Part shown: piece by piece, positions 488 to 48,132 of the stretch
Layout: each line of letters opens with the position of its first letter
Numbering within the stretch: the stretch's first letter is position 1
NCBI GenBank assembly: GCA_023250205.1
Contig: JAHFBE010000004.1
Location: 4,359-53,868 of the forward strand
DNA length: 49,510 nucleotides
Direction: 5' to 3'
From: Candidatus Melainabacteria bacterium
GTDB lineage: Bacteria; Cyanobacteriota; Vampirovibrionia; 2-02-FULL-35-15
Translations under genes and position numbers: made by a program
The notes under the pieces: model-generated
What the model was told of the DNA's origin: nothing
Seen by the model: the letters and a program-made list of their open reading frames with translations, nothing else
The model's database searches: none

Positions 488-588
488 ACGTCATTGCGAG
501 GAGGCTCTGAAAGAGCCGACGTGGCAATCTCCAAACGTTCTTGAGATTGCTTCGTCGTCCGCCATAGGCGGACTCCTCGCAATGACGT
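488..588. repeat. Palindromic REP-like element, CGTC/GTCATTGCGAG family, full copy
   Basis: ACGTCATTGCGAGGAG...GACGTGGCAATCTC-spacer-GAGATTGCTTCGTC...CTCCTCGCAATGACGT. Long inverted repeat with internal hairpins GGCTCT-GAA-AGAGCC and GTCCGCC-ATA-GGCGGAC. Confidence 0.9.
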
Positions 589-12668: not shown

Positions 12669-14639
12669 ATGTTTATATTAATAGAATACAATTTTTATTC
12701 AACTCCACCTGAAAATATTTCACTAGTAAAGTCTTCTGGTGATAATAATGAAAATAATTTAGATGATATTCTTGCAAAGAAATATGTGAAAGGTGATATT
12801 AATCAAAATGGTCAAATAGATGGTGATGATATTAAACTTTTCCTAAGCTATGTTACCGGTGAGCAAAAACCTGAAGATGCTGAAAGACTTAAAGCTGCAG
12901 ATTTTAATGGTGATGGTAAAGTTAGCGGGTTGGATTTTGGTGAATTTCAAAGCATTATTAATGCACATAAAATTGATAAAGGTACTTATTTAAAAGAGGG
13001 ATCTTTTCTCGGAACAGGTGGTATTCTTCCTGATGATGTTAGTGGAGTCAATAATTTAGATGATATAACTGGCGGAATATCTTTTGATTCAACTGATGGA
13101 CCACCACATCCAAACCAAGATATATCAAAAGGTCCACAGCAAGGAGGACCTCCTGGCGGACAACAAGGTGGACCTCCTGGTGCTAAGCCTCAAGGACCTA
13201 CAGGCGGAGCAAAACCGTTAAAGCCACTTGTGGAGAATCATTCAAATTATGATTCAGTTACACAGGGACTAATTGATGCTTTGCTTCAATCATTAGAAAA
13301 TTCTAATTATGCAGACATTAACTGGGCACAGGTAATGGAAACTATACAGCAAATTATAAATGGTTTAGGTGGCGGCGGCGGTGGACATGATCCTGTCGAT
13401 CCTGTCGATCCTGTCGATCCTGATGATCCTGATGATCCTGTAGATTTGGGACCTTATTTAAAAGGTGATGTTGATAATGACGGTGATATTGATAATGAAG
13501 ATTTGAAGTTAGCAAAACAAATTGGCATAGATCCAGAGTTTGATGTTACTGATCCTGCTTACGATGCTGCTGATATAAATGATGATGGTTCTGTAGATCC
13601 AGCAGATATTGCACTATTTAAGAAGCGTTTAAAAGGTCCTAAGAATTTTGACTTTACATATGATAAAAAATTTGATGAAGAGGATTTGAATGTACTTGAA
13701 GATTATATAGATGGCAAATTGTTGCTAACTGATGCAGAATTTAAAGCTGCAGATTCAAATGGTGATGAAAACGTAGATGCAGAAGATTTGAATATTTTAA
13801 AAAATCGTTCTGAAGAAAGACCTGTTGGCGATATAAATAATGACGGTGTAATGGATCAAAAAGATTTAGATATTCTTGAGCTTGCAATTAAGAAAAAATA
13901 TGATCTGACAAAAGAGGAAAAAACAGCTGCTGATTTGGATGGTAAAGGCGGGTTTACAAAAGCTGATATTGAATATTTTGAAAAGATATTAAAACCTCTT
14001 AAAAAAGGTGATCTTAATGGTGATGATAAGGTGGATGAAGCAGATTTGAGTCTAGCAAAAAACAGTGGGAAAGATAATCTCTTAACTAAAGAACAGCAAG
14101 ATGCTGCTGATTTGAATGATGATGATATATTTGATCAAAAAGATATTGAGTTGTTTGAAAGTAAATTTAAGTCTAAAGCAGTTGGAGATCTTGATGATAA
14201 TGGTATTGTTGATACTGCTGATCTTGCGCTTTTAATTAAAGCTAAAAATGATACTACAAGTCTAACATCATCTGAGATACAAACTATGGATATTAATCAA
14301 GATGGTGAAGTAAACGATAAAGATGTTAGCGCGATGGTTCAAAAATTTAACCCAAAAGTAAAAGGTAATGTAGATGAAACTCCATGGAAAGATAAAAATG
14401 ATAATTTGATCCAAGTAATTGATTCAAGTGACATAAATATGCTTTCAGACTTCTTGAGTGGAAACGTTGGACTTAGTTTAGAACAAATACAAGCATGTGA
14501 TATAGATGGAACTTTTGTAAATTATATTCAAAAGACCAGGGACAATTTATCTGACAGTGAAAAGACTAAACAAGACAATCACTATCTATATCTTTTTTCA
14601 AAATATGTAGAAGAGCTTCCAAGTCCTAATGTCACCTAA
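12669..14639 (+). CDS. Multi-dockerin-like (Ca-binding paired EF-hand loop) repeat protein
   Basis: Six modules of the form GDxNxDGxxDxxD...AADxNxDGxxxxxD plus one degenerate module, with Gly/Pro/Gln and DP linkers. No signal peptide. Confidence 0.8.
   Translation: MFILIEYNFYSTPPENISLVKSSGDNNENNLDDILAKKYVKGDINQNGQIDGDDIKLFLSYVTGEQKPEDAERLKAADFNGDGKVSGLDFGEFQSIINAHKIDKGTYLKEGSFLGTGGILPDDVSGVNNLDDITGGISFDSTDGPPHPNQDISKGPQQGGPPGGQQGGPPGAKPQGPTGGAKPLKPLVENHSNYDSVTQGLIDALLQSLENSNYADINWAQVMETIQQIINGLGGGGGGHDPVDPVDPVDPDDPDDPVDLGPYLKGDVDNDGDIDNEDLKLAKQIGIDPEFDVTDPAYDAADINDDGSVDPADIALFKKRLKGPKNFDFTYDKKFDEEDLNVLEDYIDGKLLLTDAEFKAADSNGDENVDAEDLNILKNRSEERPVGDINNDGVMDQKDLDILELAIKKKYDLTKEEKTAADLDGKGGFTKADIEYFEKILKPLKKGDLNGDDKVDEADLSLAKNSGKDNLLTKEQQDAADLNDDDIFDQKDIELFESKFKSKAVGDLDDNGIVDTADLALLIKAKNDTTSLTSSEIQTMDINQDGEVNDKDVSAMVQKFNPKVKGNVDETPWKDKNDNLIQVIDSSDINMLSDFLSGNVGLSLEQIQACDIDGTFVNYIQKTRDNLSDSEKTKQDNHYLYLFSKYVEELPSPNVT
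13389..13442 (+). repeat. 9-nt coding tandem repeat (GATCCTGTC/GAT/GTA) x6 encoding a DPV/DPD linker
   Basis: gatcctgtc x3, gatcctgat x2, gatcctgta. Confidence 0.85.
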
Positions 14640-18251: not shown

Positions 18252-18767
18252 ATGAACCTTGACCCAATATTCAATAAGCTGATCAATATCTTCTCTTCAG
18301 AAAAGGAAACTCCTGAATTGAATATAAATGATATTGAGCATATTTTAAAGAGAAAATTAACAGAAACTCCTGCTATTGAAAATATTGATGAAACACCTCA
18401 AAAATTAACTTATAAACTGGGTGATTTAAATAATGACGGAAAAGTTGATTTTGATGATGTTTTGATCCTGAAAGATGTTCTGGATGGTAAACGTAAGCTA
18501 ACTGAAGAAGAGCTTCTGCGTGCTGATTTGAATCAGGATGGTGAAATAGATTATAAAGATTTAAACATGCTCATTGATACTGTGATTGAGTCAAAAAGAG
18601 CCGAGGATCGGGTAATGGGATTACAGGGAAGGTATGATGAACTGCAAACACACCATGAAGATGGAACGTCTGCTTCACCTATGGAGTTAATGAAAATAAA
18701 TACAGTAAAGGCAGAGCTTGAGCAGGCAATAGCAGACTTTATTTTAAAAAGCCATAAACAGGATTAG
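18252..18767 (+). CDS. Single dockerin-like domain protein (171 aa)
   Basis: LGDLNNDGKVDFDDVLILK...RADLNQDGEIDYKDLNML. No signal peptide. Confidence 0.8.
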   Translation: MNLDPIFNKLINIFSSEKETPELNINDIEHILKRKLTETPAIENIDETPQKLTYKLGDLNNDGKVDFDDVLILKDVLDGKRKLTEEELLRADLNQDGEIDYKDLNMLIDTVIESKRAEDRVMGLQGRYDELQTHHEDGTSASPMELMKINTVKAELEQAIADFILKSHKQD

Positions 18768-21477: not shown

Positions 21478-21515
21478 GTCATTGCGAGCCGAATAAAATG
21501 AGGTGTGGCAATCTC
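21478..21515. repeat. Half-copy (one arm) of the GTCATTGCGAG element
   Basis: GTCATTGCGAGCC...GGTGTGGCAATCTC, between convergent genes. Confidence 0.75.
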
Positions 21516-21978: not shown

Positions 21979-22077
21979 ACGTCATTGCGAGGAGCGTTAG
22001 CGACGAAGCAATCCCGAGCAATTTATGTAAACATAGATCTGGATTGCCACGCCTCGCTTTGCTCGGCTCTCAATGAC
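21979..22077. repeat. Palindromic REP-like element, GTCATTGCGAG family, full copy
   Basis: ACGTCATTGCGAGGAGCGTTAGCGACGAAGCAATCC...GGATTGCCACGCC...GGCTCTCAATGAC. Confidence 0.88.
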
Positions 22078-24275: not shown

Positions 24276-27200
24276 TTACTGTCCCAATTTATCTATTAAT
24301 ATTGCACTAGAAGCTTCACCAGGATTATCAAAATTTAATTGAGAATTTGGAAGTACAAATTGTAGCGGAAAGGTTTCGTTGGTAATTAGGTTGGTATTGA
24401 AAGTGTTAACAACTAAATCAATAAAGGCTTCAGCTCGATCCGGCTCAAGTATTCCTTTGCTAGATGGTTTTCCAGCTTCAAAAGTCCCAGAAGCATAAAG
24501 TCTTAAAGCTTCTGCAATTTCTGATACTGAAACGTTTATATTTGGTTGTAATGATAGTCTTGTTAGATAGGCACCTGCTCCTGTTGGATTTAAAATAGTT
24601 TGAATATCACCTTCTGGGCTGTTAAGGATTGTTCTTGACTGTATTACTTTATCTACAGTTGTGAATCTCCCATACTTTCTAAAAACCCCACCCCAGAAAT
24701 TACCTATTGGTGAAGGAAGATTTAATAGAGTCTTTTGAGGAACATTTGCAGTCATGCTGAAAGTGTTTTGTTCATTGAATTGCAAATGGATATTATATTG
24801 TCCATTTTGTATACAGCCAGTAAATATTCCTGGTTGTAATGGTATATGTGAAAATGGTTCAATAACTTTTAAGTTTGTATTAAATAATTCATTTGTAGCT
24901 GAAATACTTACCATTGTATTTGTTCTCTTAATATCTAAATTATTTAAATCTTTCCCTATGAAAAATCTTCTATCTATTATACCTATTACATTTGTACATG
25001 TAGTATCTGTCGTATCTGATTTTAACTGTGCATGTGAAAGAGTGAAATAAAGAACTAGCCCAAGCAGTCCTATAGCTGCTATATCTGGAGCACTCAAGGT
25101 TCCAGCACCTATAGCTGCTGCATTTGCTAAGCCATTAAGTAGAACGGAATTTGAAAGCCCAGAAGCATTTACTTGTGGACTTATTGTTCCGATTGTTCTT
25201 AAAGTGTTTGCTGAATTAATAAGTGAAACTATATAAGGAAGGTTTGTCTTAGTTGAAGTTGAAATATATTCTAAGTAGTTTGTTGATGATATTCCACAAG
25301 TTAAAGTACTACCAGTAATCTGTGCTTTAAGATTTGATTCTCTATTATCATCTTTTAGTACACATCGTAATTGATCTATCGTGTAAAGAAGTTCATACGT
25401 GGCTTCCTGTGTCTCTAAATCATAGCCATTGTTATTGTCTTCACTTAAAAGTTTTAGATCTTTTAGAAGCCGTTTAAAATCTTTTAAAGATATTTTGTCA
25501 TTAGAAGAGAAACTTAATCCTTTAACACCAAGAATAGGATCATCCGATATTGTAGCCGTTCCATTAGTTACAAATGGAAGATTAATAGTATCAGTTTCAT
25601 TGCTTGATTCTGTAAAGAAAGAGCTTTCACCAATTTTTAGTTCACATACATCACTCTCTCCACCAGAAGTCAGAGTAAATATTACTTCTGTATAAATACT
25701 CCATGCTTGAGGAAGAGTGAATGAGATTATTCCACTTTGAGCCCAGTCAGTTTTATCTTTAAATTCTACGGGAAGTGGAATTGATTTATCGATAGTGCCA
25801 TCAGGTTTCTTTCCATTAATTGAGACATATGCTGACTTTGTAGATTTGAGAGCATAGTTAAAATCTATACTTTGACTGATACTTGCAGCATTTGGCTCCA
25901 GATTACAGAAAGTTATCTGCACAGAAGGGTCGAAAATTGGCACCGTTGATACTGTTTTGAATTGACCATTAAGAATATTGAAATTAAATTTATTTTTATT
26001 TAATTTATCCTGTACGAAGTTTAAGAAATCATCACTTCTGTTTAATGTAACTAGTGCCTCTGTAGTTTCAGGAGGTAGATTTTCTATTTTTTTAGTTTTT
26101 GATTGTTGTCCTTTTGGAATAAGAACTGATGTATTAAATTCCCCGAGATTTCCAAGAATCATGCCACTTTCATCTTTAGGCTCTACCACTAATTCCAGAG
26201 GGAATCTCTTTCCTTTTGGTCCGTAACTCGGAATATTGTTTTTAATTGTTAGATTTAAAACTTTTGTATTCGTTTTTGAATTTGTTTTTAAAGCACCTTT
26301 TACTACTGGCTTGTCTAAGAGAATTAATTCTTGTGGCTCAGCATATGACTCAGTCGGAAATGTAGAAACTGAAGGAGATAAAGTAGTAATTTCATTGTAG
26401 AGAAAAATCGGACCAATGGCACTTAGGTTTTCAAAAGCATCTTTAAAATTGTTTTCTGTACTGAGATTGAAGTTTAAATTATATTCAAAGCTTACAGTGT
26501 CTTCATTCAGACTACTTGCCATAATTCCTTTAATGACTGAATCATTGTTATTACTAGAGGTAACGATTCTTATAACGTCATCAGAACCAAACCTAATTCC
26601 ATACTTTGCAAGATTTTTAATTTTATCTGTGCTTAATGCCTGTAAGTCAACAGGAAGTTTAGCCTTATCTAAGATAGATTTAATTAAAGTTTTTGAAGAT
26701 TGGATAACAGTGTATTCTTCCGGCTGAATAATCTCTACAGCAACTTCAGGATTTGACTTAATATCTTTGAAATTGGCAAGGTATGAAGACCAGCTATCAG
26801 TTAGATTCCCTGAATCAGGAGAAAAACTTATAGGAAGAGTAAGTGTATATGAAGAAGAATCTTTTGTTAGTTCTTTAGGTGTGTAACTAAAAGAACAATT
26901 TGCTGCTAGTTCTCTTGTGGGGGATAAAATATTTGGCTGATAATTACAGCTAACAGTTACATTATCTCTTTCTCCTGTAGGAGTTTGAATATATGCCTGC
27001 CCTAAACGTGGAAGATGGTCTTGATCTTTTATCGGAATAGAATCGTATAAGTTTAAATTAAATGTAATATTATTTAATTTATTCCAAAGTAAGTTCTGAG
27101 GTTTTAAAGCAGATATTTTCGCATTATAATCCCTTGTAATGTTAATAATGAAATTGTTCGTGAGCTGAGTTGAATAGTTTTCTAAAGTTGTACCAAAGTG

Positions 27201-30200
27201 ACTTCTTGAAGTGTCTGTAGAAGTGATTGTATGGGAAAAATTATACTGCCCAATAGTCCAGTATAAAGTAGGATCTGGAGAGTTTGCATTAATATCAAAT
27301 AGTTCATTTGATAAAGTTCTATTTAGTATGAAAGATTCATAGACATCATAAGTGTTGCTACTACATCCATCTATATCGCCCAAGGTGCCAGAGTTACTAA
27401 TTGTATTTGAGTTAATTGGTGGATATGCACCTTTACCATTCAATAGGATTTCTTTAGTTCCAAATTGTAATTTGGATAAATCATTGACTTGTAACTCAAA
27501 AGGTGTCTCACTATCACTTACAGGCAAATCATCATCGTCACAAATCTTGGACTTAATAACTAATTCAAACGGTTCACCTTGTTTGAAGTTATGAGGTTGA
27601 CCATCATTATAAATAATTTGGACATCGTTATTTGATACATTGCTTAGTAATTTGATTTGTCTGTTGTCATTTATATTAATTTCATCACTTGTAATATTCC
27701 CAGCTCTGTCTTTTACATTGATTTCTACTTTAGATAGAGGGGAATCTAAAGTATTTGGATCAATAACAATGCTAAAAGCTTTTTTACCATTATCAAGCTC
27801 CTCAATGTCATCTTCATACAATTCCTTGAATGAATTATTTTCATTTATTCTGTAGGAAATTGAGTGAAATTGTTTATCTTCAATAGTTCCAGAAATTAAG
27901 AGCTTATTCTCAGGAAGAATTAAATCATTTTCATTAGGTGACTCTATATTTAGTAGAGGTGCTTCTGTATCCACTATAATCTCTCTTTCTTCACTCATAA
28001 AGAGTTCATCGGAGGAATCTACAGTTTCAAAGTAATAAGTGTTTATACCTTCACTTAATGAGATCGTTTGATTTTCACTAGTTTGATCTAGTTCTGTCGT
28101 AGTTTCATTTTCGTCTTCATCTCTTACCTTGATTTTTAAGCTGTTGTTTGGATCATCAGGATTTGCAAAGGATGTTAGTACCATAAAGGTAACAATTGAT
28201 TGGTTTGTAAATGATACATCTGAGAGATCGTCTAATAGATAGACTCCACTTGTACCAGTTCCGGCTACTGTGATTTCTGGAACATTAAAGACAAATTTTC
28301 TTATAGACTCTTCTATATAAACTGTTAGCTTTGGTGTATATGTTCCTGGCGTAGTGTAAGTGTGAGTAAAAGTTTTTGTGAGTAACTGATCAAGGGTAAT
28401 ATTTTCTAATTCAATATGAGATTCTTCGCTAGAGTTTACCCTGAGCGAAGCGAATGGGCTCGCAATGACAGAGTCACCCCAATCAAGCTCATATTTTGAA
28501 ACTGTTGCATTAACTGCTTTTGCGGTTTCATTATCGATCATTAGATTTACAGTCAATGGGACTATTCCTGAAGCTTGCTCTGGTCTTACATCTAAGAGAA
28601 CAAAGTTTGGTTCAGCATTAAATGTAATTGTTCCAGCACTTGCTTCCCAAGTTTCTTTTTGTCCACTTCTAAACACCGTAGAAACTGTAAGTTTTGGTGT
28701 AACCGATTTCCTGTCTGTGTATGGCGAACCATTAAAAGATTTATTATTGTCAAAGTAATAGTGCGTAGGATTTGGAGAGGTGCAGTCATCTGGAAGAGAA
28801 TTTCCCTTACAGCTTTCATCCCCAAAATCCCATTTATATGTTTGTGACTGAACATGACCACCAAGAACTTTTACATCAGATTTGAATCTTACGGGGATTC
28901 CTGCAGTCCCACTGGGGATTACTTCGTCGCTATTGCTCCCTGCAATGACATTTGGATCGTAAACTTTTTTATCAGAAGGATTCGTCGTGGCAAATACTAT
29001 TACTCTTTGTGAAGGTTTTGTCAGTGTAACTGATTCTGTAGAAGCCGTATCCGTCAATCCGGCTTTGTCTTTTACAGTAAGTGTTGCAAAGTAACTTCCC
29101 GGAGTAAAGAGACTTCCTGAATAGAAACTCTTCCCATCTTCTGACACTTTTCCATCAATTGGCAGTGATACTAACTGTGAATCCTGATTAAATCTTAGCT
29201 CAAAGAGTTTCCAGTTATTTAACTTTGAGTCTACAAAATCAAGAGCACTTGAAAATCTTTGGTTTGGATCGTAGCTATCTAAATCTACAAAGGTAGTAAA
29301 TAATGGTGGTGTAGTAGTAAATGTATCTCCTGAAACTTTTGCTTTAGCTATTGGATTGTAGTTTGGATATATAAAAACTGTTGGTCCATTATATGTTCCT
29401 ATCTTTGTTTGAACACCATTTTCATTCCAGAATAAGTCTACCTGTGGATTTGCGATTTGTGGAGTAGTTAAAGATTTGTTTGTGTTTTGATAAGTGAAAG
29501 TATAGTTATCATTTGCTATAGCTAAGCTTTCTCTGCCATCTCCAGATTTGAAATTATATCTTAGATTTGAAGAGTATTCCTGACCCGTAGAAATTTGTAC
29601 TTTGTATTTTATGGAGTGTCCATCCTGAATTACTTTATTTCCCACCTGGACAAATCCTACATTGTCGGAAGAGTTCTCTTCAATTCCAAAAATAGTTCCT
29701 ACTGCTGGTTTTGGTGTAAAAGTTAATCTGTGTGAAGCAGGAATTAAAGTATCTGAATATTCACTCAAGATACTTCTTGCTGCTAAATATTTCAATGCTT
29801 CAATACTTGTAAACTCTTCGCCAATGGATGAGTTTCTTTGAACAGTAGCAATTACTTTACAATTTCCATTTTTTGATTGTAGGTTTAATGGAATTGAATC
29901 TTTAAAGAATGTATCCCCATTTGAATCTTTTACTCCATTTATCGTAGTAGTAGAAAAGTTATTTGAGTTATTTATAGCAGTAAGAAGTTTTCCATCAGGA
30001 TCAAATACTGCAATATAAGCTGTATATGTAGCGTTTGGATTGTTTCCTTTTACTTTTAGTTCTACATCAAAACTGTTTCCGGGGAATGGTTGTATCGGTG
30101 TAATTTTAAAGGAACTATCTACCAGTTTGAAATCATCTGTGACTGCAAGAGAAAGAATTGAAGAATCTTTTCCATTTCCATGGAGTTGTACTAGTTTTGC

Positions 30201-33200
30201 TCCAGGACTTGAGAATTTGTCTGGTATATAAACTATAATTTGATTTTTATTTACGGAGTTTTTAGTAATTATCTGATTATCAATGGTTACATTTGTATTT
30301 TGATCAAAATTATCTCCGTTAATTGTAAGTATCCTCTTATTTCCTTCCAGAGAAATGTTATTAGGGCTTATTGAATAAAGTTTTGGACCACTGTTGTTTG
30401 TAAATATCACATCATTTACATAAAGTAAGTCATTTGGATTTCCATTAAAACTTATTTTTAGTTCATGTAATCCGCTTGAAAGAGTTCTTGTATCCAGATT
30501 TTCCCAGGATAGAGTTTGACTTGTTTGTACAAAGCTTCTGCTAATAAGGTTTCCATCAATCCAGAAATCCACATAGTTCCAATCTGGAGTTCCTGATTTG
30601 TAGTGAGATAAATTGAGTGAGGTTTTCACATCATAAGTATTATCCAGGCAAAATGGAGTACTTACTGAACCTGAACCCTGAATAGTTGCAGAAGGTGAAC
30701 TTAAGAAAGTATTGTTTCCACTAAGTACTGTAGTAGAGTCACTTCCCCAGTATGTTTGCGGCAATGTTTTCTTTAAGTTACAGACATTGCTTTGATTTGC
30801 CTTTGCTGTGTAGTAAGAAATGTTTGATTGGGAGCCGTCAGAATTTAAAACCGATATTGATTTTCCTCCTAAATACTGAACGAGGTTAGCTGGTATTCTT
30901 ATGTAGATTGTATTTGCATCATTTGCAAATGGTGTAAGTAAGTATCCATCAAAATAAACTCGAGATGTTTCTCTAAAATTATTTCCGTTAATTCTTAAGT
31001 CAAATGCTCCTCGACCAGCAGTTCCTTCTGTTGGGAAAATTGAAGAGATTTGTGGCTGAACTGTTTTTGTAAATGTAAAATATCCGGATGTCCAGGTTCC
31101 TGAAGCTAATTCATTTCCAGAATTATCTGTTGGTCTAAATTCTACTTTTATCCTTGGATTTGTAGTTGTGCTTGTAAATGATATTCCAGCGCCTGCCCAC
31201 CATTGTATTGAACCTGCAAGCTTTGAATCTACGTAAACATTTGTCTTTGTCCATTTTGCAAAAGGAGTATTGGCAAGAGAACCTTTCCAGCCAAGTTCAA
31301 TGTATCCATCTCTTTCAGTAATAACATCCAGTGTTAATGAATTTGAGCTGCTTGGGCTAATTGTTACCCATGGATTTACTACATAGTTAAAGTTTGAGAT
31401 TTCAAACCCAGCAGTTTGTAGCTTTGTGATTTTTTGAGCAGAATTTGAAGCAGCTACACGGGTATTTAAAGAAGCTGCTTCAGTTTCTCCGCTCTTTTGT
31501 GGTGATTTTGTTTCACCAACAAAACCTCTTACAAAAAATCCTTGATTAATCAAATCTTGAATCTCCACGTCATTGCGAGGAGCCTCTAAAGGAGGCGACG
31601 TGGCAATCTCATAAGTGTTAGAACGCTCATGAGATTGCTTCGTCAGTTTTTCAAACTTCCTCGCAATGACATATGGGGTAAGTTCTTTTTTCTCCCCATA
31701 TTCCCTATTCCCTAAATCCCCAAATCCTTTTTCTACAAAATCACTTACAGCACTAGGTAAAGCAATTCTTTCTACTACCACACCAAGTTCATCTACATTT
31801 AAGCCAACATTAAACGTTATAGCAATTTCTTCATTTGTTTCTTGTTCTGCTGTTGAGCTGTTCCTTGCAATTTGATTTCCATTTGTATCTGTAGCTGATA
31901 GTTTTAATGTATATAATCCAGGAGGCAGATCTGCAGGAATGCTAATACTTTCTTCTAAGTATTGTTCATTTGTTATTGAGTTATCTTTGTTCTTACTTTC
32001 TAAATCAATTACTTTTTGCGTAATTATTTTTTCATCCAGCCCATATAACGTATAGCCAAAATTACTTAATCCAATATTATCTCTGACAAAACAGGACAGT
32101 CTAACTGCTCCACCAGGATTAACGGTCTTAGGCTCAATTGTTATTGGTCCAATTTCTGGTTTTTTGTTATCAGATGAAATGAATATATCAGTGACTTCTT
32201 TTATCATTGACTCAATTGCAGATTCAATTTCTTCTTTTGTATAAGTGTCATTCTGAGGAGCATCAGCGACGAAGAATCTCTTAACGTTAGTAGATTCTTC
32301 GCTATCGCTCAGAATGACATTATTTGAACGAAACAATGCTTCGTTGCTAACGCTCCTTGCAGTGGCATATTTAGCAATCTTTATAGAAGAAGCCTGTGCA
32401 AAGCCTACATTATTTTCATTATCTACGACAACTAAAGTTGGAGTAAAAGTACCTTCACTGTTATATGTATGCTTTGGTGAAATCTCTGTAGACTTTTCAC
32501 CATCACCAAAGTCCCATGTAAGAATTTGTAGTCCACCACCTGCTTTTGGATCATAACTTTCAGAAGCATCAAAATTTATCTCTAGTCCCGGTTCGCCAAT
32601 ATTTTTATCGCTTAGTATTTTAGCTATTGCAACAGGTGCTTGATCTGGTGTAATAGTATAAGTCTCCCCATAGAATCTAGTTTTTGTTCCATCTGATTTT
32701 TCTATTTCTAATATTGGTGTGTATTGTCCTGCTTTTGTAAAAGTATATTCAAATTCTTCATTTGTAGAGATTAGCTCATTATTCACTTCATCGGAAAGAT
32801 CAATCAAATTTCCATTTACATCCCATGTTCTAGCACTCCATATCCATTTGTATTGAAGAGGTGTATTAGGATTTTGCGGATCAAAGCTTCCAACAGCAGA
32901 TAGCTTTATCATTGCCTGACCAACAATACCGCTATCATTTCCTTCTAGCTTTGTTATTTGTCCGACTGGTGTATTATTTGCTCCAACAATAACATTTCCA
33001 ATATTTATTTTTTTAAGTCTGTTGTCAGGTGTAAACGCTGTTAATGATGCTAGATATACTCCGGGATCCTGATAGGTGTGTTTAATTATTCCTTGAGTAC
33101 TATCTATTATTTGAGAATTACCATCTCCAAAATCCAGCTTAATACTTACAGCTTTACCGTCATAATCCTGTGAACTGCTTCCATCAAAGGTAACTTCAAA

Positions 33201-34892
33201 AGGAGCATTTCCTGTCGTTTGATCTAACTTAGCATTTGCAAGTGGTTGTGGCTTTAAAACTATTGTTGAAATTGTTTTTGAGCTTTCTCCCCTGCGAGTA
33301 TCACTAACTGTAAGTTTTACATTATAGGTTCCTGAATCTTTGTATTCATGTTTTGGACTTACTTCGTTACTTGTTGTATTGTCACCAAAGTCCCAAGTAT
33401 ACGTAAGCTCTTCATTATCAGGATCATAAGTTCCATTACTTACAAATTGAACTTCACTGGTGAAAAACCCTTCCTTATTTTGTTTTAAAATACTTTCTTT
33501 TGGAACTGCTGCGATTTGAGTTATTGGTAAGTTGTTTGGTGGGAGTAGTGTAATTTTTGTAGAAGTGATGGTTGTCTTTGCTCCAAGGATATCGTTAACT
33601 ATAAGCTTTGGCTGATATTTACCTGGAATTGTGTATGTGTGAGATGGGTTTTGTTCAGTACTGGTTTGTCCATCACCAAATTCCCAATAGTAGGATATTT
33701 CATCATTCTCTTTATCACTAACATTTGCAGTAAATGTAATACTAAGTGGAACATCTCCCTTTGTTTCATTTAATATAAAGACTCCTTCGGGAGCAAAGTT
33801 CTTTTCTCTTATTTCGATTTCTTTTGTAATAGCAGAAGTTTTTCCATAAGCATTTACTACATTTAAACGGGCTATGTATTTCCCCGGTTTTTTATAAGTA
33901 TGAGATATTACGGGATCTGTAGAAGTATTCTGATTCTCTTCAGTTGAATTTTCTAAATCCCCCAAGTTCCAAGAATAACTAAGCGCTTGTCCAAAATATT
34001 TTGCTAGTAAATCCTCAGTAGTTCTTCCATCAAAAGTAATAATCTGTGGTGCTACTCCAATGCTTGGTGTTGCATTGATTTTTGCAATTGGAATTGGATT
34101 TACTACCATTACATTAAAGCCTTTGCTTACCCCACCTAAAGGAGGTGGATTTGCTACAAAGATTTCAAAATTATTTTCTTTATTTAAATAGTTTGCTGGA
34201 ATAGTGGTAATCAACTTATTTGGTGAAACATATTTGGTTTGGATTTTCAGTGTTCCTATTGAAGCAACTGAATCTTGTACAAAATTGTCACCTTCTAAAC
34301 TTACATCAATAGATCCTCCGTTTTGTGATATTGGTAAGAGGTTGGGAGATATAAGTCCAAGAAGAGGTATTCCATTAAACACTTTATATGAAACATTATC
34401 GCTGGTAAGTTTAAGAGCTTCACCAGTAAATGAAGTAAGAGAATAGCTTGCAGGGAGTGAGGTAAGTCTAATTGCTTCAGCAGTTTGTGATATAGAGTAG
34501 CTTACAGGATTAGAGGACAGTTGAATAGCAGATGCAAGGTCTATAGTGCTATAGCTTACAGGATTGGAAGAAAGCTGAATAGCGGATGCAAGATTTGTAA
34601 TATTAAAGCTTACTGGTAAAGAACTTGATTGAATTGCTGTTGGGGATAAAGAAGTATCAAAGCTTACTGGTTTGGACTGAACTATTGAAAGGTTAAAGTC
34701 ATTTGTTGTTTGGGCTTTAGAAGGCAAGAATGAAAACGGATCAAGAAATAGAAATTTCAAACACAGGAAAAGAAGAAATACTTTTCTAAACATGAAACTA
34801 TATTTCTTAAAGTATCTTGTTAAGAAATAAGCTGAAACTCCGAAGCGCTTTCCTCTTGTTATTATTATTTCAAGGTAGAAATGTCTTTTCAT
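24276..34892 (-). CDS. Giant secreted/surface protein with ~10 PKD and ~3 IPT/TIG Ig-like domains and a distinct C-terminal region
   Basis: Repeated Y.W.FGDG...H.Y..PG.Y motifs and P.I.SI.P...I.G.NF motifs. A signal peptide follows the alternative start ATG 34793 (MFRKVFLLF...PSKA-Q). About six N-terminal AIQLSSNPVSY-type repeats. Confidence 0.88.
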   Translation of the reverse strand: MKRHFYLEIIITRGKRFGVSAYFLTRYFKKYSFMFRKVFLLFLCLKFLFLDPFSFLPSKAQTTNDFNLSIVQSKPVSFDTSLSPTAIQSSSLPVSFNITNLASAIQLSSNPVSYSTIDLASAIQLSSNPVSYSISQTAEAIRLTSLPASYSLTSFTGEALKLTSDNVSYKVFNGIPLLGLISPNLLPISQNGGSIDVSLEGDNFVQDSVASIGTLKIQTKYVSPNKLITTIPANYLNKENNFEIFVANPPPLGGVSKGFNVMVVNPIPIAKINATPSIGVAPQIITFDGRTTEDLLAKYFGQALSYSWNLGDLENSTEENQNTSTDPVISHTYKKPGKYIARLNVVNAYGKTSAITKEIEIREKNFAPEGVFILNETKGDVPLSITFTANVSDKENDEISYYWEFGDGQTSTEQNPSHTYTIPGKYQPKLIVNDILGAKTTITSTKITLLPPNNLPITQIAAVPKESILKQNKEGFFTSEVQFVSNGTYDPDNEELTYTWDFGDNTTSNEVSPKHEYKDSGTYNVKLTVSDTRRGESSKTISTIVLKPQPLANAKLDQTTGNAPFEVTFDGSSSQDYDGKAVSIKLDFGDGNSQIIDSTQGIIKHTYQDPGVYLASLTAFTPDNRLKKINIGNVIVGANNTPVGQITKLEGNDSGIVGQAMIKLSAVGSFDPQNPNTPLQYKWIWSARTWDVNGNLIDLSDEVNNELISTNEEFEYTFTKAGQYTPILEIEKSDGTKTRFYGETYTITPDQAPVAIAKILSDKNIGEPGLEINFDASESYDPKAGGGLQILTWDFGDGEKSTEISPKHTYNSEGTFTPTLVVVDNENNVGFAQASSIKIAKYATARSVSNEALFRSNNVILSDSEESTNVKRFFVADAPQNDTYTKEEIESAIESMIKEVTDIFISSDNKKPEIGPITIEPKTVNPGGAVRLSCFVRDNIGLSNFGYTLYGLDEKIITQKVIDLESKNKDNSITNEQYLEESISIPADLPPGLYTLKLSATDTNGNQIARNSSTAEQETNEEIAITFNVGLNVDELGVVVERIALPSAVSDFVEKGFGDLGNREYGEKKELTPYVIARKFEKLTKQSHERSNTYEIATSPPLEAPRNDVEIQDLINQGFFVRGFVGETKSPQKSGETEAASLNTRVAASNSAQKITKLQTAGFEISNFNYVVNPWVTISPSSSNSLTLDVITERDGYIELGWKGSLANTPFAKWTKTNVYVDSKLAGSIQWWAGAGISFTSTTTNPRIKVEFRPTDNSGNELASGTWTSGYFTFTKTVQPQISSIFPTEGTAGRGAFDLRINGNNFRETSRVYFDGYLLTPFANDANTIYIRIPANLVQYLGGKSISVLNSDGSQSNISYYTAKANQSNVCNLKKTLPQTYWGSDSTTVLSGNNTFLSSPSATIQGSGSVSTPFCLDNTYDVKTSLNLSHYKSGTPDWNYVDFWIDGNLISRSFVQTSQTLSWENLDTRTLSSGLHELKISFNGNPNDLLYVNDVIFTNNSGPKLYSISPNNISLEGNKRILTINGDNFDQNTNVTIDNQIITKNSVNKNQIIVYIPDKFSSPGAKLVQLHGNGKDSSILSLAVTDDFKLVDSSFKITPIQPFPGNSFDVELKVKGNNPNATYTAYIAVFDPDGKLLTAINNSNNFSTTTINGVKDSNGDTFFKDSIPLNLQSKNGNCKVIATVQRNSSIGEEFTSIEALKYLAARSILSEYSDTLIPASHRLTFTPKPAVGTIFGIEENSSDNVGFVQVGNKVIQDGHSIKYKVQISTGQEYSSNLRYNFKSGDGRESLAIANDNYTFTYQNTNKSLTTPQIANPQVDLFWNENGVQTKIGTYNGPTVFIYPNYNPIAKAKVSGDTFTTTPPLFTTFVDLDSYDPNQRFSSALDFVDSKLNNWKLFELRFNQDSQLVSLPIDGKVSEDGKSFYSGSLFTPGSYFATLTVKDKAGLTDTASTESVTLTKPSQRVIVFATTNPSDKKVYDPNVIAGSNSDEVIPSGTAGIPVRFKSDVKVLGGHVQSQTYKWDFGDESCKGNSLPDDCTSPNPTHYYFDNNKSFNGSPYTDRKSVTPKLTVSTVFRSGQKETWEASAGTITFNAEPNFVLLDVRPEQASGIVPLTVNLMIDNETAKAVNATVSKYELDWGDSVIASPFASLRVNSSEESHIELENITLDQLLTKTFTHTYTTPGTYTPKLTVYIEESIRKFVFNVPEITVAGTGTSGVYLLDDLSDVSFTNQSIVTFMVLTSFANPDDPNNSLKIKVRDEDENETTTELDQTSENQTISLSEGINTYYFETVDSSDELFMSEEREIIVDTEAPLLNIESPNENDLILPENKLLISGTIEDKQFHSISYRINENNSFKELYEDDIEELDNGKKAFSIVIDPNTLDSPLSKVEINVKDRAGNITSDEININDNRQIKLLSNVSNNDVQIIYNDGQPHNFKQGEPFELVIKSKICDDDDLPVSDSETPFELQVNDLSKLQFGTKEILLNGKGAYPPINSNTISNSGTLGDIDGCSSNTYDVYESFILNRTLSNELFDINANSPDPTLYWTIGQYNFSHTITSTDTSRSHFGTTLENYSTQLTNNFIINITRDYNAKISALKPQNLLWNKLNNITFNLNLYDSIPIKDQDHLPRLGQAYIQTPTGERDNVTVSCNYQPNILSPTRELAANCSFSYTPKELTKDSSSYTLTLPISFSPDSGNLTDSWSSYLANFKDIKSNPEVAVEIIQPEEYTVIQSSKTLIKSILDKAKLPVDLQALSTDKIKNLAKYGIRFGSDDVIRIVTSSNNNDSVIKGIMASSLNEDTVSFEYNLNFNLSTENNFKDAFENLSAIGPIFLYNEITTLSPSVSTFPTESYAEPQELILLDKPVVKGALKTNSKTNTKVLNLTIKNNIPSYGPKGKRFPLELVVEPKDESGMILGNLGEFNTSVLIPKGQQSKTKKIENLPPETTEALVTLNRSDDFLNFVQDKLNKNKFNFNILNGQFKTVSTVPIFDPSVQITFCNLEPNAASISQSIDFNYALKSTKSAYVSINGKKPDGTIDKSIPLPVEFKDKTDWAQSGIISFTLPQAWSIYTEVIFTLTSGGESDVCELKIGESSFFTESSNETDTINLPFVTNGTATISDDPILGVKGLSFSSNDKISLKDFKRLLKDLKLLSEDNNNGYDLETQEATYELLYTIDQLRCVLKDDNRESNLKAQITGSTLTCGISSTNYLEYISTSTKTNLPYIVSLINSANTLRTIGTISPQVNASGLSNSVLLNGLANAAAIGAGTLSAPDIAAIGLLGLVLYFTLSHAQLKSDTTDTTCTNVIGIIDRRFFIGKDLNNLDIKRTNTMVSISATNELFNTNLKVIEPFSHIPLQPGIFTGCIQNGQYNIHLQFNEQNTFSMTANVPQKTLLNLPSPIGNFWGGVFRKYGRFTTVDKVIQSRTILNSPEGDIQTILNPTGAGAYLTRLSLQPNINVSVSEIAEALRLYASGTFEAGKPSSKGILEPDRAEAFIDLVVNTFNTNLITNETFPLQFVLPNSQLNFDNPGEASSAILIDKLGQ
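28418..28470. repeat. In-frame half REP-like element inside a PKD domain (encodes VIASPFASLRVNSSEES)
   Basis: Minus strand reads TGTCATTGCGAG-CCCATTCGCTTCGCTCAGGGTAAACT-CTAGCGAAGAATCTC. Confidence 0.8.
31569..31670. repeat. In-frame full REP-like element (102 bp) in the giant gene (encodes VIARKFEKLTKQS...EIATSPPLEAPRND)
   Basis: GTCATTGCGAGGAGCCTCTAAAGGAGGCGACGTGGCAATCTC...GAGATTGCTTCGTC...TCCTCGCAATGAC; arms nearly identical to 488..588. Confidence 0.92.
32247..32318. repeat. In-frame REP-like element, CTG variant (72 bp; encodes VILSDSEES...RFFVADAPQND)
   Basis: GTCATTCTGAGGAGCATCAGCGACGAAGAATCT...AGATTCTTCGCTATCGCTCAGAATGAC. Confidence 0.88.
32334..32366. repeat. Eroded in-frame half element (encodes ATARSVSNEAL)
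   Basis: CAATGCTTCGTTGCTAACGCTCCTTGCAGTGGC matches the reverse complement of the 21981 left arm at 27/33 positions. Confidence 0.65.
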
Positions 34893-37422: not shown

Positions 37423-37441
37423 ATATAACCGACGGTTACAT
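37423..37441. promoter_or_regulatory. Palindrome ATATAACC-GAC-GGTTACAT (operator candidate, 1 mismatch)
   Basis: Matches the palindromes at 10601 and 37499. Confidence 0.55.
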
Positions 37442-37498: not shown

Positions 37499-37517
37499 AT
37501 GTAACCCACGGTTACAT
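37499..37517. promoter_or_regulatory. Palindrome ATGTAACC-CAC-GGTTACAT (operator candidate)
   Basis: Perfect 8-bp arms identical to those at 10601; ends 36 nt upstream of the RAYT ATG. Confidence 0.6.
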
Positions 37518-37553
37518 GTGTGTGAAAACAAAAATTGTAAAATAAAAATTATT

Positions 37554-38102
37554 ATGAAATATAATCCTGAAATTCATCATCGCAGATCAATTCGATTGAA
37601 AAATTATGATTATTCACAAAATGGTTATTATTTTGTCACAATTTGTACGCAAAACAGGCAATGTTATTTTGTGCAAGAATGTGTCATAAAAATGATAGAA
37701 AAATGGTGGTATGAATTGCCAAATAAATTTTCAAATGTTCAAACAGATGAATCTATTGTAATGCCGGATCATTTCCATGGAATTATTGTGATTACCGATT
37801 CCGTAGGGGCAGACCCGTGTGTCTGCCCAAATATAAAATGGGACAAACACATTGGTTTGGAAACATCGGGCAAACACATTGGTTTGCCCCTACAATCAAT
37901 TGTTCAATGGTTTAAAACAATGACCACAAATGAATATATTAGAAACGTGAAAAATCTAAAATGGAAACCATTTGATAGAAAATTGTGGCAACGTAATTAT
38001 TATGAACATATTGTTCGGGATGAAAAAGAATTATATAGAATCAGGCAATATATTAAAAACAACCCAATAGAATATTTGCGTAAGAATAAAGATGATATGT
38101 GA
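37554..38102 (+). CDS. REP-associated tyrosine transposase (RAYT / Y1 HUH, IS200-like)
   Basis: HHRRSIRLKNYDYS, YFVTICT, HUH motif MPDHFHGII, WQRNYYEHIVR and catalytic Tyr in YIKNNP. Start placed at MKYNP (ATG 37554). Confidence 0.9.
   Translation: MKYNPEIHHRRSIRLKNYDYSQNGYYFVTICTQNRQCYFVQECVIKMIEKWWYELPNKFSNVQTDESIVMPDHFHGIIVITDSVGADPCVCPNIKWDKHIGLETSGKHIGLPLQSIVQWFKTMTTNEYIRNVKNLKWKPFDRKLWQRNYYEHIVRDEKELYRIRQYIKNNPIEYLRKNKDDM
37803..37893. repeat. Inverted pair of GTAG-type REPs embedded in the RAYT coding sequence
   Basis: GTAGGGGCAGACCCGTGTGTCTGCCC ... GGGCAAACACATTGGTTTGCCCCTAC, plus a partial extra arm at 37840-37860. Confidence 0.85.
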
Positions 38103-48006: not shown

Positions 48007-48132
48007 GTCATTGCGAGCGAAGCGAAGCAATCTTATACCAAAGTAAATGTAAATAAGACCTCTTTAAGGCATTGATATTATGCGATAGCTGCTGTTTAAG
48101 ATTGCTTTGTCACTATCGCTCCTCGCAATGAC
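48007..48132. repeat. Palindromic REP-like element, GTCATTGCGAG family, full copy
   Basis: GTCATTGCGAGCGAAGCGAAGCAATCTTA...TAAGATTGCTTTGTCACTATCGCTCCTCGCAATGAC. Confidence 0.88.

Follow-up and report, generated by a model that had tools for sequence, protein, structure and literature searches.

The window analyzed here, 49,510 nucleotides of a metagenome-assembled genome of Candidatus Melainabacteria bacterium (contig JAHFBE010000004.1, positions 4,359 to 53,868), holds a giant open reading frame (ORF) in which five copies of a hairpin repeat lie in frame without breaking it. The five copies belong to a genome-wide family of repetitive extragenic palindromic (REP) sequences tagged with CGTC or TGTC, and we consider it probable that they are near-neutral passengers of this family, lodged in loops and linkers that tolerate insertion. 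They leave the frame open and face empty sites in orthologues; the family stands inside 27 host genes with a bias in reading phase, and the loops that it fills hold different occupants in different genomes. In-frame CGTC repeats have already been published (PMC3733652); relative to the parts of that paper compared here, what is new is that different repeats have come to refill these very loops in relatives. Below, G000 is the genome that holds the window (2.09 Mb), G001 to G010 and the like are other genomes, and P-numbers are protein homologues.

The product of the host ORF is likely an exported or surface protein. Its PKD and IPT/TIG domains, together with a hydrophobic stretch near the N terminus, make the label "surface protein" reasonable, and one orthologue is annotated [quoted passage not shown] Residues 1832-2297 are matched in 10 of the 11 other genomes of the family. 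An earlier note on the window, made from its letters alone, had described four palindromic copies within this ORF that did not break it, and all four are there in an open frame; we add a fifth (copy 5 in Table 1). The two copies it regarded as full are head-to-head dimers with lengths divisible by 3, as it said, and the sites are as it placed them, three in linkers and one in the loop after a PKD WGD motif. The palindromic form holds for these two dimers, but the other two of its four are single units, and the copy it had put at 28418-28470 is present with better bounds of 28416-28469. Its view that insertions of different ages have added peptide sequence to the protein also stands, given the empty orthologous sites and copies that range from intact to eroded.

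Each of the five copies is closely matched by a unit elsewhere in G000, with 28/33 to 33/34 positions identical. Copy 4 is chimeric, its head belonging to one subtype and its body to a second, and shares 48 of 52 bases with an intergenic copy on contig C72, while copy 5 is identical to another unit of G000 at 31 of 35 positions. Copy 1, which lies 15 bp from copy 2 and was missed by our repeat hidden Markov model (HMM), differs from the intergenic unit at 21981 by 6 mismatches in 33; 30 codon-shuffled ORFs gave no match at ≤11 mismatches. Copy 3 sits in a poorly conserved linker. All five copies are read in the phase that gives V-I from GTC-ATT, or from its decayed form. The common frame is thus real, but it is no peculiarity of this protein: 17 of the 22 in-gene dimers of the genome use it, and five out of five has a probability of 0.28. 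The frame is open and the flanks are conserved, so the insert sites are probably translated through; predicted junction peptides are LTPYVIAR and WGDSVIASPFASLR.

The family to which these copies belong is large. The HMM, built from 197 distinct strict units, gives 373 matches of at least 8 bits in G000 and 3 in the reversed genome, which excludes chance. These 373 units form 208 loci, 134 of which are head-to-head (+-) dimers. By our own crude calls of 1746 ORFs, which cover ∼89% of the genome, 132 loci are intergenic, 32 lie across a gene end, 8 are inside an ORF near its end, and 36 are further in. The foot reads (T/C)GTC, with T or C before GTC at nearly all ends of 137 dimers, and a stem-loop stands directly behind it (stems TTGC/GCAA and ATTC/GAAT). 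Units are 26-51 nt long, their loops vary in length, and dimers fold at z-scores of -4.5 to -10.7. Direct target-site duplications, the mark of a miniature inverted-repeat transposable element, were no commoner beside the 137 dimers than in shuffled flank pairs. Each of the 11 other family genomes contains the strict repeat pattern, as do 5 of 29 genomes from outside the family; G000 is the richest, with 249.

At a threshold of at least 10 bits, 32 of 201 loci (16%) lie inside 27 genes. Of the host ORFs, 33 were scanned against Pfam and 23 of these against NCBIfam. LigA, ValS, DnaX, RecF, HemC, MetH, PurL, and BioD pass the model cut-offs with the insert in place, as do riboflavin synthase, MtnA, MtnB, and a UbiD-family decarboxylase, with PrmC and TrmL just below. 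The impression that housekeeping genes are free of the repeat therefore applies to the window but not to the genome, where ligA, valS, dnaX, recF, hemC, metH, and purL carry it, and the idea of insertions specific to a surface protein fails, as the same family is in frame in core genes too. By reading phase, the 22 in-gene dimers are 17 VIA, 5 HCE, and 0 SLR. For ten of them the foot-to-foot length is not divisible by 3, so sequence gained or lost at the junction must often preserve the frame.

Orthologues of the giant protein with empty sites indicate that the copies are insertions, as the earlier note had expected. We aligned G000 with 13 homologues; the protein flanking the empty sites is 55-70% identical. 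The WGD loop at residue 2142 is empty in 9 of the 13 and holds a repeat peptide in 4: VIASEAQQSQ in G002, VIARSVATKQSP in G008, VILSNSEESP in P0004, and VIPAEAGIQ in P0005. Other REP subtypes fill the loop at residue 1982 in G001, P0004, and P0005 (G005 is ambiguous). In the linker at residues 843-882, G003 carries another dimer, read in the HCE phase, and G005 may retain a remnant. The linker at residue 1075 has no recognizable repeat in the 13 homologues. DNA confirms the repeats in G001, G002, G003, and G008, and those of P0004, P0005, and P0008 were read from peptides only. In all, occupants vary between genomes in peptide (VIAS, VIAR, VILS, VIPAEAGIQ), in phase (VIA and HCE), and in class, GTAG-type palindromes and 7-nt tandem repeats included. 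Since occupants differ at one and the same loop, neither the peptide nor the hairpin sequence is conserved.

The insert sites themselves fall among the least conserved 2-20% of windows when judged from six relatives alone. An AlphaFold2 model of residues 1961-2215 (255 residues, 10 sequences) has a mean predicted local distance difference test score (pLDDT) of 78 and two strand-rich domains, in which the only segments below 50 are the two inserts (residues 1980-1995 and 2143-2162). In the model, both inserts are low-confidence loops within intact beta-sandwiches. Low pLDDT at an insert also follows from alignment gaps, so the model backs disorder weakly and an intact fold rather better.

The recurrence is not confined to the giant protein. 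Loops filled in G000 often hold something else in relatives, be it a CGTC repeat of another subtype, a 28-nt GTAG-type palindrome, or a run of 7-nt tandem repeats. We made family-wide alignments for 7 of the 26 other host genes, picked as recognizable enzymes (mtnA, prmC, hemC, recF, ligA, valS, and ubiD), and searched with a three-class repeat detector, for which codon shuffles give 0-1.7 hits per gene set. Across 8 genes, counting outside G000's own reference genes, keeping all rows, and taking "on site" as within 6 residues, 26 of 39 repeat events fall at G000's 13 sites, compared with 2.0 expected under uniform placement. Non-CGTC repeats cannot share descent with the G000 inserts and were therefore also counted separately: 10 of 20 such events are on site, with 1.15 expected. 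The uniform null is generous, because not every loop can change (in the giant protein, 19 of 143 windows are length-variable), and 26 of 39 overstates the effect, because kin share events that are not independent (G000 and G002 in valS, G000 and G001 in ubiD). Of the off-site hits, three that resemble CGTC repeats are apparently noise; a second mtnA copy of G000 accounts for two of the on-site events. Separate events are required in some cases, where phase or position differs. Others look like a single site whose interior was exchanged: in valS, G000 and G002 share one dimer but with a swapped inner module, similar to copy 4. In mtnA a CGTC dimer stands where six relatives have GTAG-type palindromes or remnants, three of which pass the detector. 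Searches of the open-access literature yielded no paper on unrelated repeat classes that refill the same loops across a family, and nothing relevant on this lineage.

Further observations concern these genes and repeat classes. G000 has two mtnA genes, 70% identical (C7:67762-68988, locus L024, and C70:3126-4322, locus L043), in which the same two loops carry dimers, though not the same ones; the one on C70, a 6-kb contig, may be a paralogue or contamination of the bin. Near-identical dimers with the same junctions occur across genera, in mtnA of G000 and G003 (L080 and L079) and in ligA of G001 and G003 (L132 and L133), which is at odds with one tree and points to either gene transfer or differential loss. 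The 28-nt GTAG-type palindromes of G000, a second family (for example at C1:20512-20539, C52:11013-11040, and C80:20238-20265), lie mostly within genes: 12 of the 19 matches to the pattern are inside ORFs, though two or three of these 12 are doubtful. Heptamer runs have expanded in frame in G004, G005, G006, and G007, within these same enzyme loops (L094, L096, L120, L163, and others); we take these 7-nt tandem repeats to resemble the short tandem repeats of cyanobacteria.

How could such a pattern arise? We suggest that the repeats spread genome-wide, probably helped by an SsnA-like GIY-YIG single-strand nuclease whose own gene is flanked by repeats. Purifying selection would purge almost all coding copies, as the 16% of loci in genes covering most of the genome leads us to infer, and the survivors would need both an open frame and a flexible loop. 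A loop once filled would stay a landing place, its occupant decaying, being lost, or being replaced by another subtype or class, and the inserted peptides would be translated but unstructured.

The candidate nuclease is a small gene of G000, one of four GIY-YIG matches in the genome (PF01541, 53.6 bits), which, like a frameshifted second copy, is enclosed by inward-facing repeat units (Table 1). Among homologues of at least 48% identity, 9 of 11 loci have an HMM match within 150 nt, and the other two have related GTCAT hairpins, seen by eye; of the weaker GIY-YIG loci, none of the five scored has a repeat match within 150 nt, and four were left unscored. The 98-residue protein has no match in PDB and none above cut-off in NCBIfam. 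In the parts of PMC11893778 compared here, SsnA is a single-strand nuclease whose cuts fall next to its own repeat, and ssnA is flanked by repeats; mobilization of the repeats by SsnA is put forward there, too, as a hypothesis. The ssnA-like gene is likely the partner of our repeats, judging by its setting, and it may also move them.

Several findings weigh against this account. SsnA was shown to cut, not to transpose, in the parts of PMC11893778 that we used; the published degenerate SRM pattern has 5 exact matches in G000, compared with 249 copies of the main subtype; and G003 has 80 repeat-pattern matches but none to the GIY-YIG query. Passive survival is also not the whole story within genes. 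Stop avoidance alone, calculated from 110 non-internal dimers in two orientations, predicts 9.5 VIA, 7.3 HCE, and 5.3 SLR (p=0.0025), so the phase bias exceeds it and calls for a filter besides the open frame, either peptide content or target phase. The giant gene has 3 loci of at least 10 bits where 0.18 would be expected by length, while two longer ORFs have none (a post hoc comparison), and, base for base, dimers inside genes fold slightly better than the rest (p=0.06). Finally, the WGD loop is not length-variable in repeat-free homologues, yet 5 of 14 sequences have a repeat there, so plain tolerance does not fully explain it.

Some of the same evidence could point to recombination. One old insertion per site, made in an ancestor of the family, might have been overwritten later through repeat-to-repeat recombination or cut out, so that the recurrence would reflect turnover rather than many independent landings, a reading that overlaps with the landing-place step of the explanation we favor but makes recombination, perhaps started by nuclease nicks, the driver. 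The loop at residue 2142 fits this, as the repeats of G000, P0004, and P0005 begin at the same codon after W/Y-G/N-D-x, in the same phase but with three subtypes; so do the chimeric copy 4, the swapped module in valS, and the replaced palindromes in mtnA. However, the copy in G008 lies 4-5 codons from that of G000, the dimers in G003, mtnA, and prmC stand in different phases and thus mark separate events, and clean empty sites are the majority, which would require many precise losses. The inner branches of the giant-protein trees are conflicting or weakly supported (29-66% in one tree), which precludes a tally of gains versus losses. We regard recombination at old insertions as possible but doubtful. 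A broader version is more speculative: the loops would be standing landing pads that exchange CGTC subtypes, GTAG palindromes, and 7-nt repeats through an SsnA-like nuclease together with recombination. If true, this would amount to nuclease-driven, in-frame loop swapping in dozens of proteins, essential enzymes included, without a transposase.

It is also conceivable that the inserts are functional, diversifying exposed loops of a surface protein or forming hairpins that set the pace at which the mRNA of a 10.6-kb gene is translated or processed. The excess of copies in the giant gene, the recurrence at the same loops, the frame bias, and two strongly folding dimers (z-scores of -10.2 and -5.9 against shuffles) would suit such a role, but the three single units (-1.8, -0.3, and +0.5) hardly exceed shuffles in folding, if at all, and this speaks against an mRNA structure. 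In addition, most orthologues are empty, the occupants are not conserved, cytoplasmic enzymes have the same pattern, and in-gene units are no better kept than intergenic ones (median 27.4 versus 26.9 bits, p=0.92). A function of the inserts therefore seems unlikely to us, and the mRNA role proposed in the earlier note is unsupported, with no positive sign of it, although the two dimers could still have one. Mobilization by an IS200-type, RAYT-like transposase at 37518-38102 appears quite unlikely as well. No other gene of G000 matches Y1_Tnp, the distance to the giant ORF is 2.6 kb, and the best NCBIfam match is the RAYT model, but at 67.6 bits, below the model cut-off of 80; in a REPtron the repeats would flank the RAYT gene, yet no unit of the repeat family lies within 5 kb of this one, whereas both small GIY-YIG genes are tightly flanked; and in the parts of PMC3733652 compared here, no dedicated transposase was found for CGTC repeats.

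That the copies are an assembly artefact, or the ORF a decaying pseudogene, is very improbable. The genome is a metagenome assembly, and copy 4 is covered by overlapping contigs with no single listed contig across it, but the other four copies are spanned without differences by contigs from two samples of one study (one of which may be the source of the window), each copy has its own sequence, the ORF stays open over 3538 codons, and orthologues both with and without inserts reach full length (3300-3540 residues). The sequencing runs that contain this DNA are groundwater metagenomes; no RNA run is listed among those holding the region, which has no bearing on expression. A scan of metagenomes for closer relatives found only 2 loci, at 63-68% identity, one of which encodes the same protein as G010, so the insert junctions cannot be placed to the base.

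TABLE 1 Host ORF, repeat copies, and GIY-YIG genes (positions are those of the window unless a contig of G000 is named)
Feature	Position	Strand	Remarks
Host ORF, 3538 aa	24276..34892	-	PKD and IPT/TIG Ig-like domains; hydrophobic signal-like stretch, aa 32-50
Copy 1, eroded single REP unit, aa 843-853	32334..32366	-	ATARSVSNEAL; linker after N-terminal PKD run; fold z +0.5
Copy 2, 72-bp head-to-head dimer, aa 859-882	32247..32318	-	GTCATTCTGAG...GAATC subtype; VILSD...PQND; fold z -5.9
Copy 3, 102-bp head-to-head dimer, aa 1075-1108	31569..31670	-	Main GTCATTGCGAG...GCAATC subtype; VIARK...PRND; 33 + 36 bits; fold z -10.2
Copy 4, single compound unit, aa 2142-2159	28416..28469	-	VIASPFASLRVNSSEESH; loop after PKD-type WGD motif, directly behind YELDWGDS
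Copy 5, eroded single unit, aa 1982-1993	28914..28949	-	VIAGSNSDEVIP; loop between strands 1 and 2 of PKD-like domain; 8.7 bits
Intergenic dimer, same repeat family	490..586	.	HMM, fold
Intergenic unit, same repeat family	21478..21515	+	HMM
Intergenic dimer, same repeat family	21981..22077	.	HMM, fold
Intergenic dimer, same repeat family	48007..48132	.	HMM
Small single-domain GIY-YIG gene, 98 aa	C39:23047-23343		Enclosed by inward-facing repeat units
Frameshifted GIY-YIG copy	C54:2957-3246		Enclosed by inward-facing repeat units

Among known systems, the CGTC-tagged REPs are the closest. Families CGTC-1 to CGTC-4 were described with intragenic copies by Di Nocera, De Gregorio and Rocco in 2013 (PMC3733652), and in the parts of that paper used here, in-frame copies encode peptides such as VIPAKAGI...RND and ...GMT, with double insertions in one gene and one same-site case in two species (recB). 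The repeats of G000 share with them the terminal (C/T)GTC foot, a short stem-loop, and a mostly head-to-head, mostly intergenic arrangement with a minority in frame. Published families have a stem of 8-9 bp and a loop of 4-5 nt, however, and the loops of the G000 repeats are longer. The main GTCATTGCGAG...GCAATC subtype, which encodes VIAR and RHCE peptides, is absent from the four supplements of PMC3733652, which hold no VIAR, VIAS, or GTCATTGCG string, and both five copies per gene and refilling by unrelated classes go beyond the descriptions compared.

The Rickettsia palindromic elements RPE-1, RPE-4, and RPE-6 likewise stand in frame in working genes, housekeeping genes included, according to the same parts of PMC3733652. 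The likeness to them that the earlier note had drawn is a fair one as regards in-frame palindromic insertion with empty orthologous sites, but our host is a free-living groundwater melainabacterium rather than an intracellular alphaproteobacterium, and its repeats use two reading phases. Four insert-bearing peptides found no match at E≤1 in NCBIfam, its RPE peptide model included. With the NTS/SRM repeats and SsnA (PMC11893778, in part), the repeats of G000 have in common a GIY-YIG gene of about 100 residues between hairpin repeats with a GTCA foot and hundreds of copies. The GTCATTCC subtype is close to NTS, with 9 matches in G000 and others in relatives, whereas the main subtype is a divergent motif, as its few SRM matches indicate, and coding insertions are not dealt with in the SsnA/NTS descriptions compared. 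The GTAG-type REP/REPIN and RAYT systems share the dimer architecture and the dispersed copies, and GTAG-type 28-nt palindromes are in frame in G000 and its family, but the foot differs and the RAYT-like gene of G000 is not flanked by the family of the five copies.

Some features of the neighborhood deserve mention. The RAYT-like gene (+ strand) seemingly has palindromic inserts of its own in frame (VGADPCVCP ... GKHIGLPL), placed after the HFHG motif and ahead of the conserved C-terminal half, and is preceded by a GTAACC-n-GGTTAC palindrome (37424-37440 and 37501-37517) found 12 times in the genome and 0 times in a reversed control; the same palindrome lies upstream of two ssnA-like genes in relatives (L064 and L076). 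In the giant ORF, residues 3200-3538 (24279-25292, - strand) vary among orthologues, with one form after a hydrophobic helix in G000, G003, and G004 and another in G010 and G005. This part is possibly an exchangeable tip; its 338 residues have no Pfam match and no usable protein-atlas match. Close to the 5′ end of the ORF, a 54-nt tandem duplication with 80% identity (34498-34605) encodes a repeated serine-rich peptide after the signal region. Elsewhere in the window, two proteins have type I dockerin-like repeats (+ strand; 12669-14639, with six stretches, and 18252-18767), which are unusual outside cellulolytic bacteria.

In-frame palindromic repeats are known, and five copies in one gene would be ordinary by themselves. 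The filling, emptying, and refilling of the same loops, however, amounts to a natural map of the loops at which enzymes tolerate insertion, and it provides a test set for how CGTC-type repeats spread without a transposase. With both the repeat and a candidate nuclease identified, cleavage and mobility can be tested directly.

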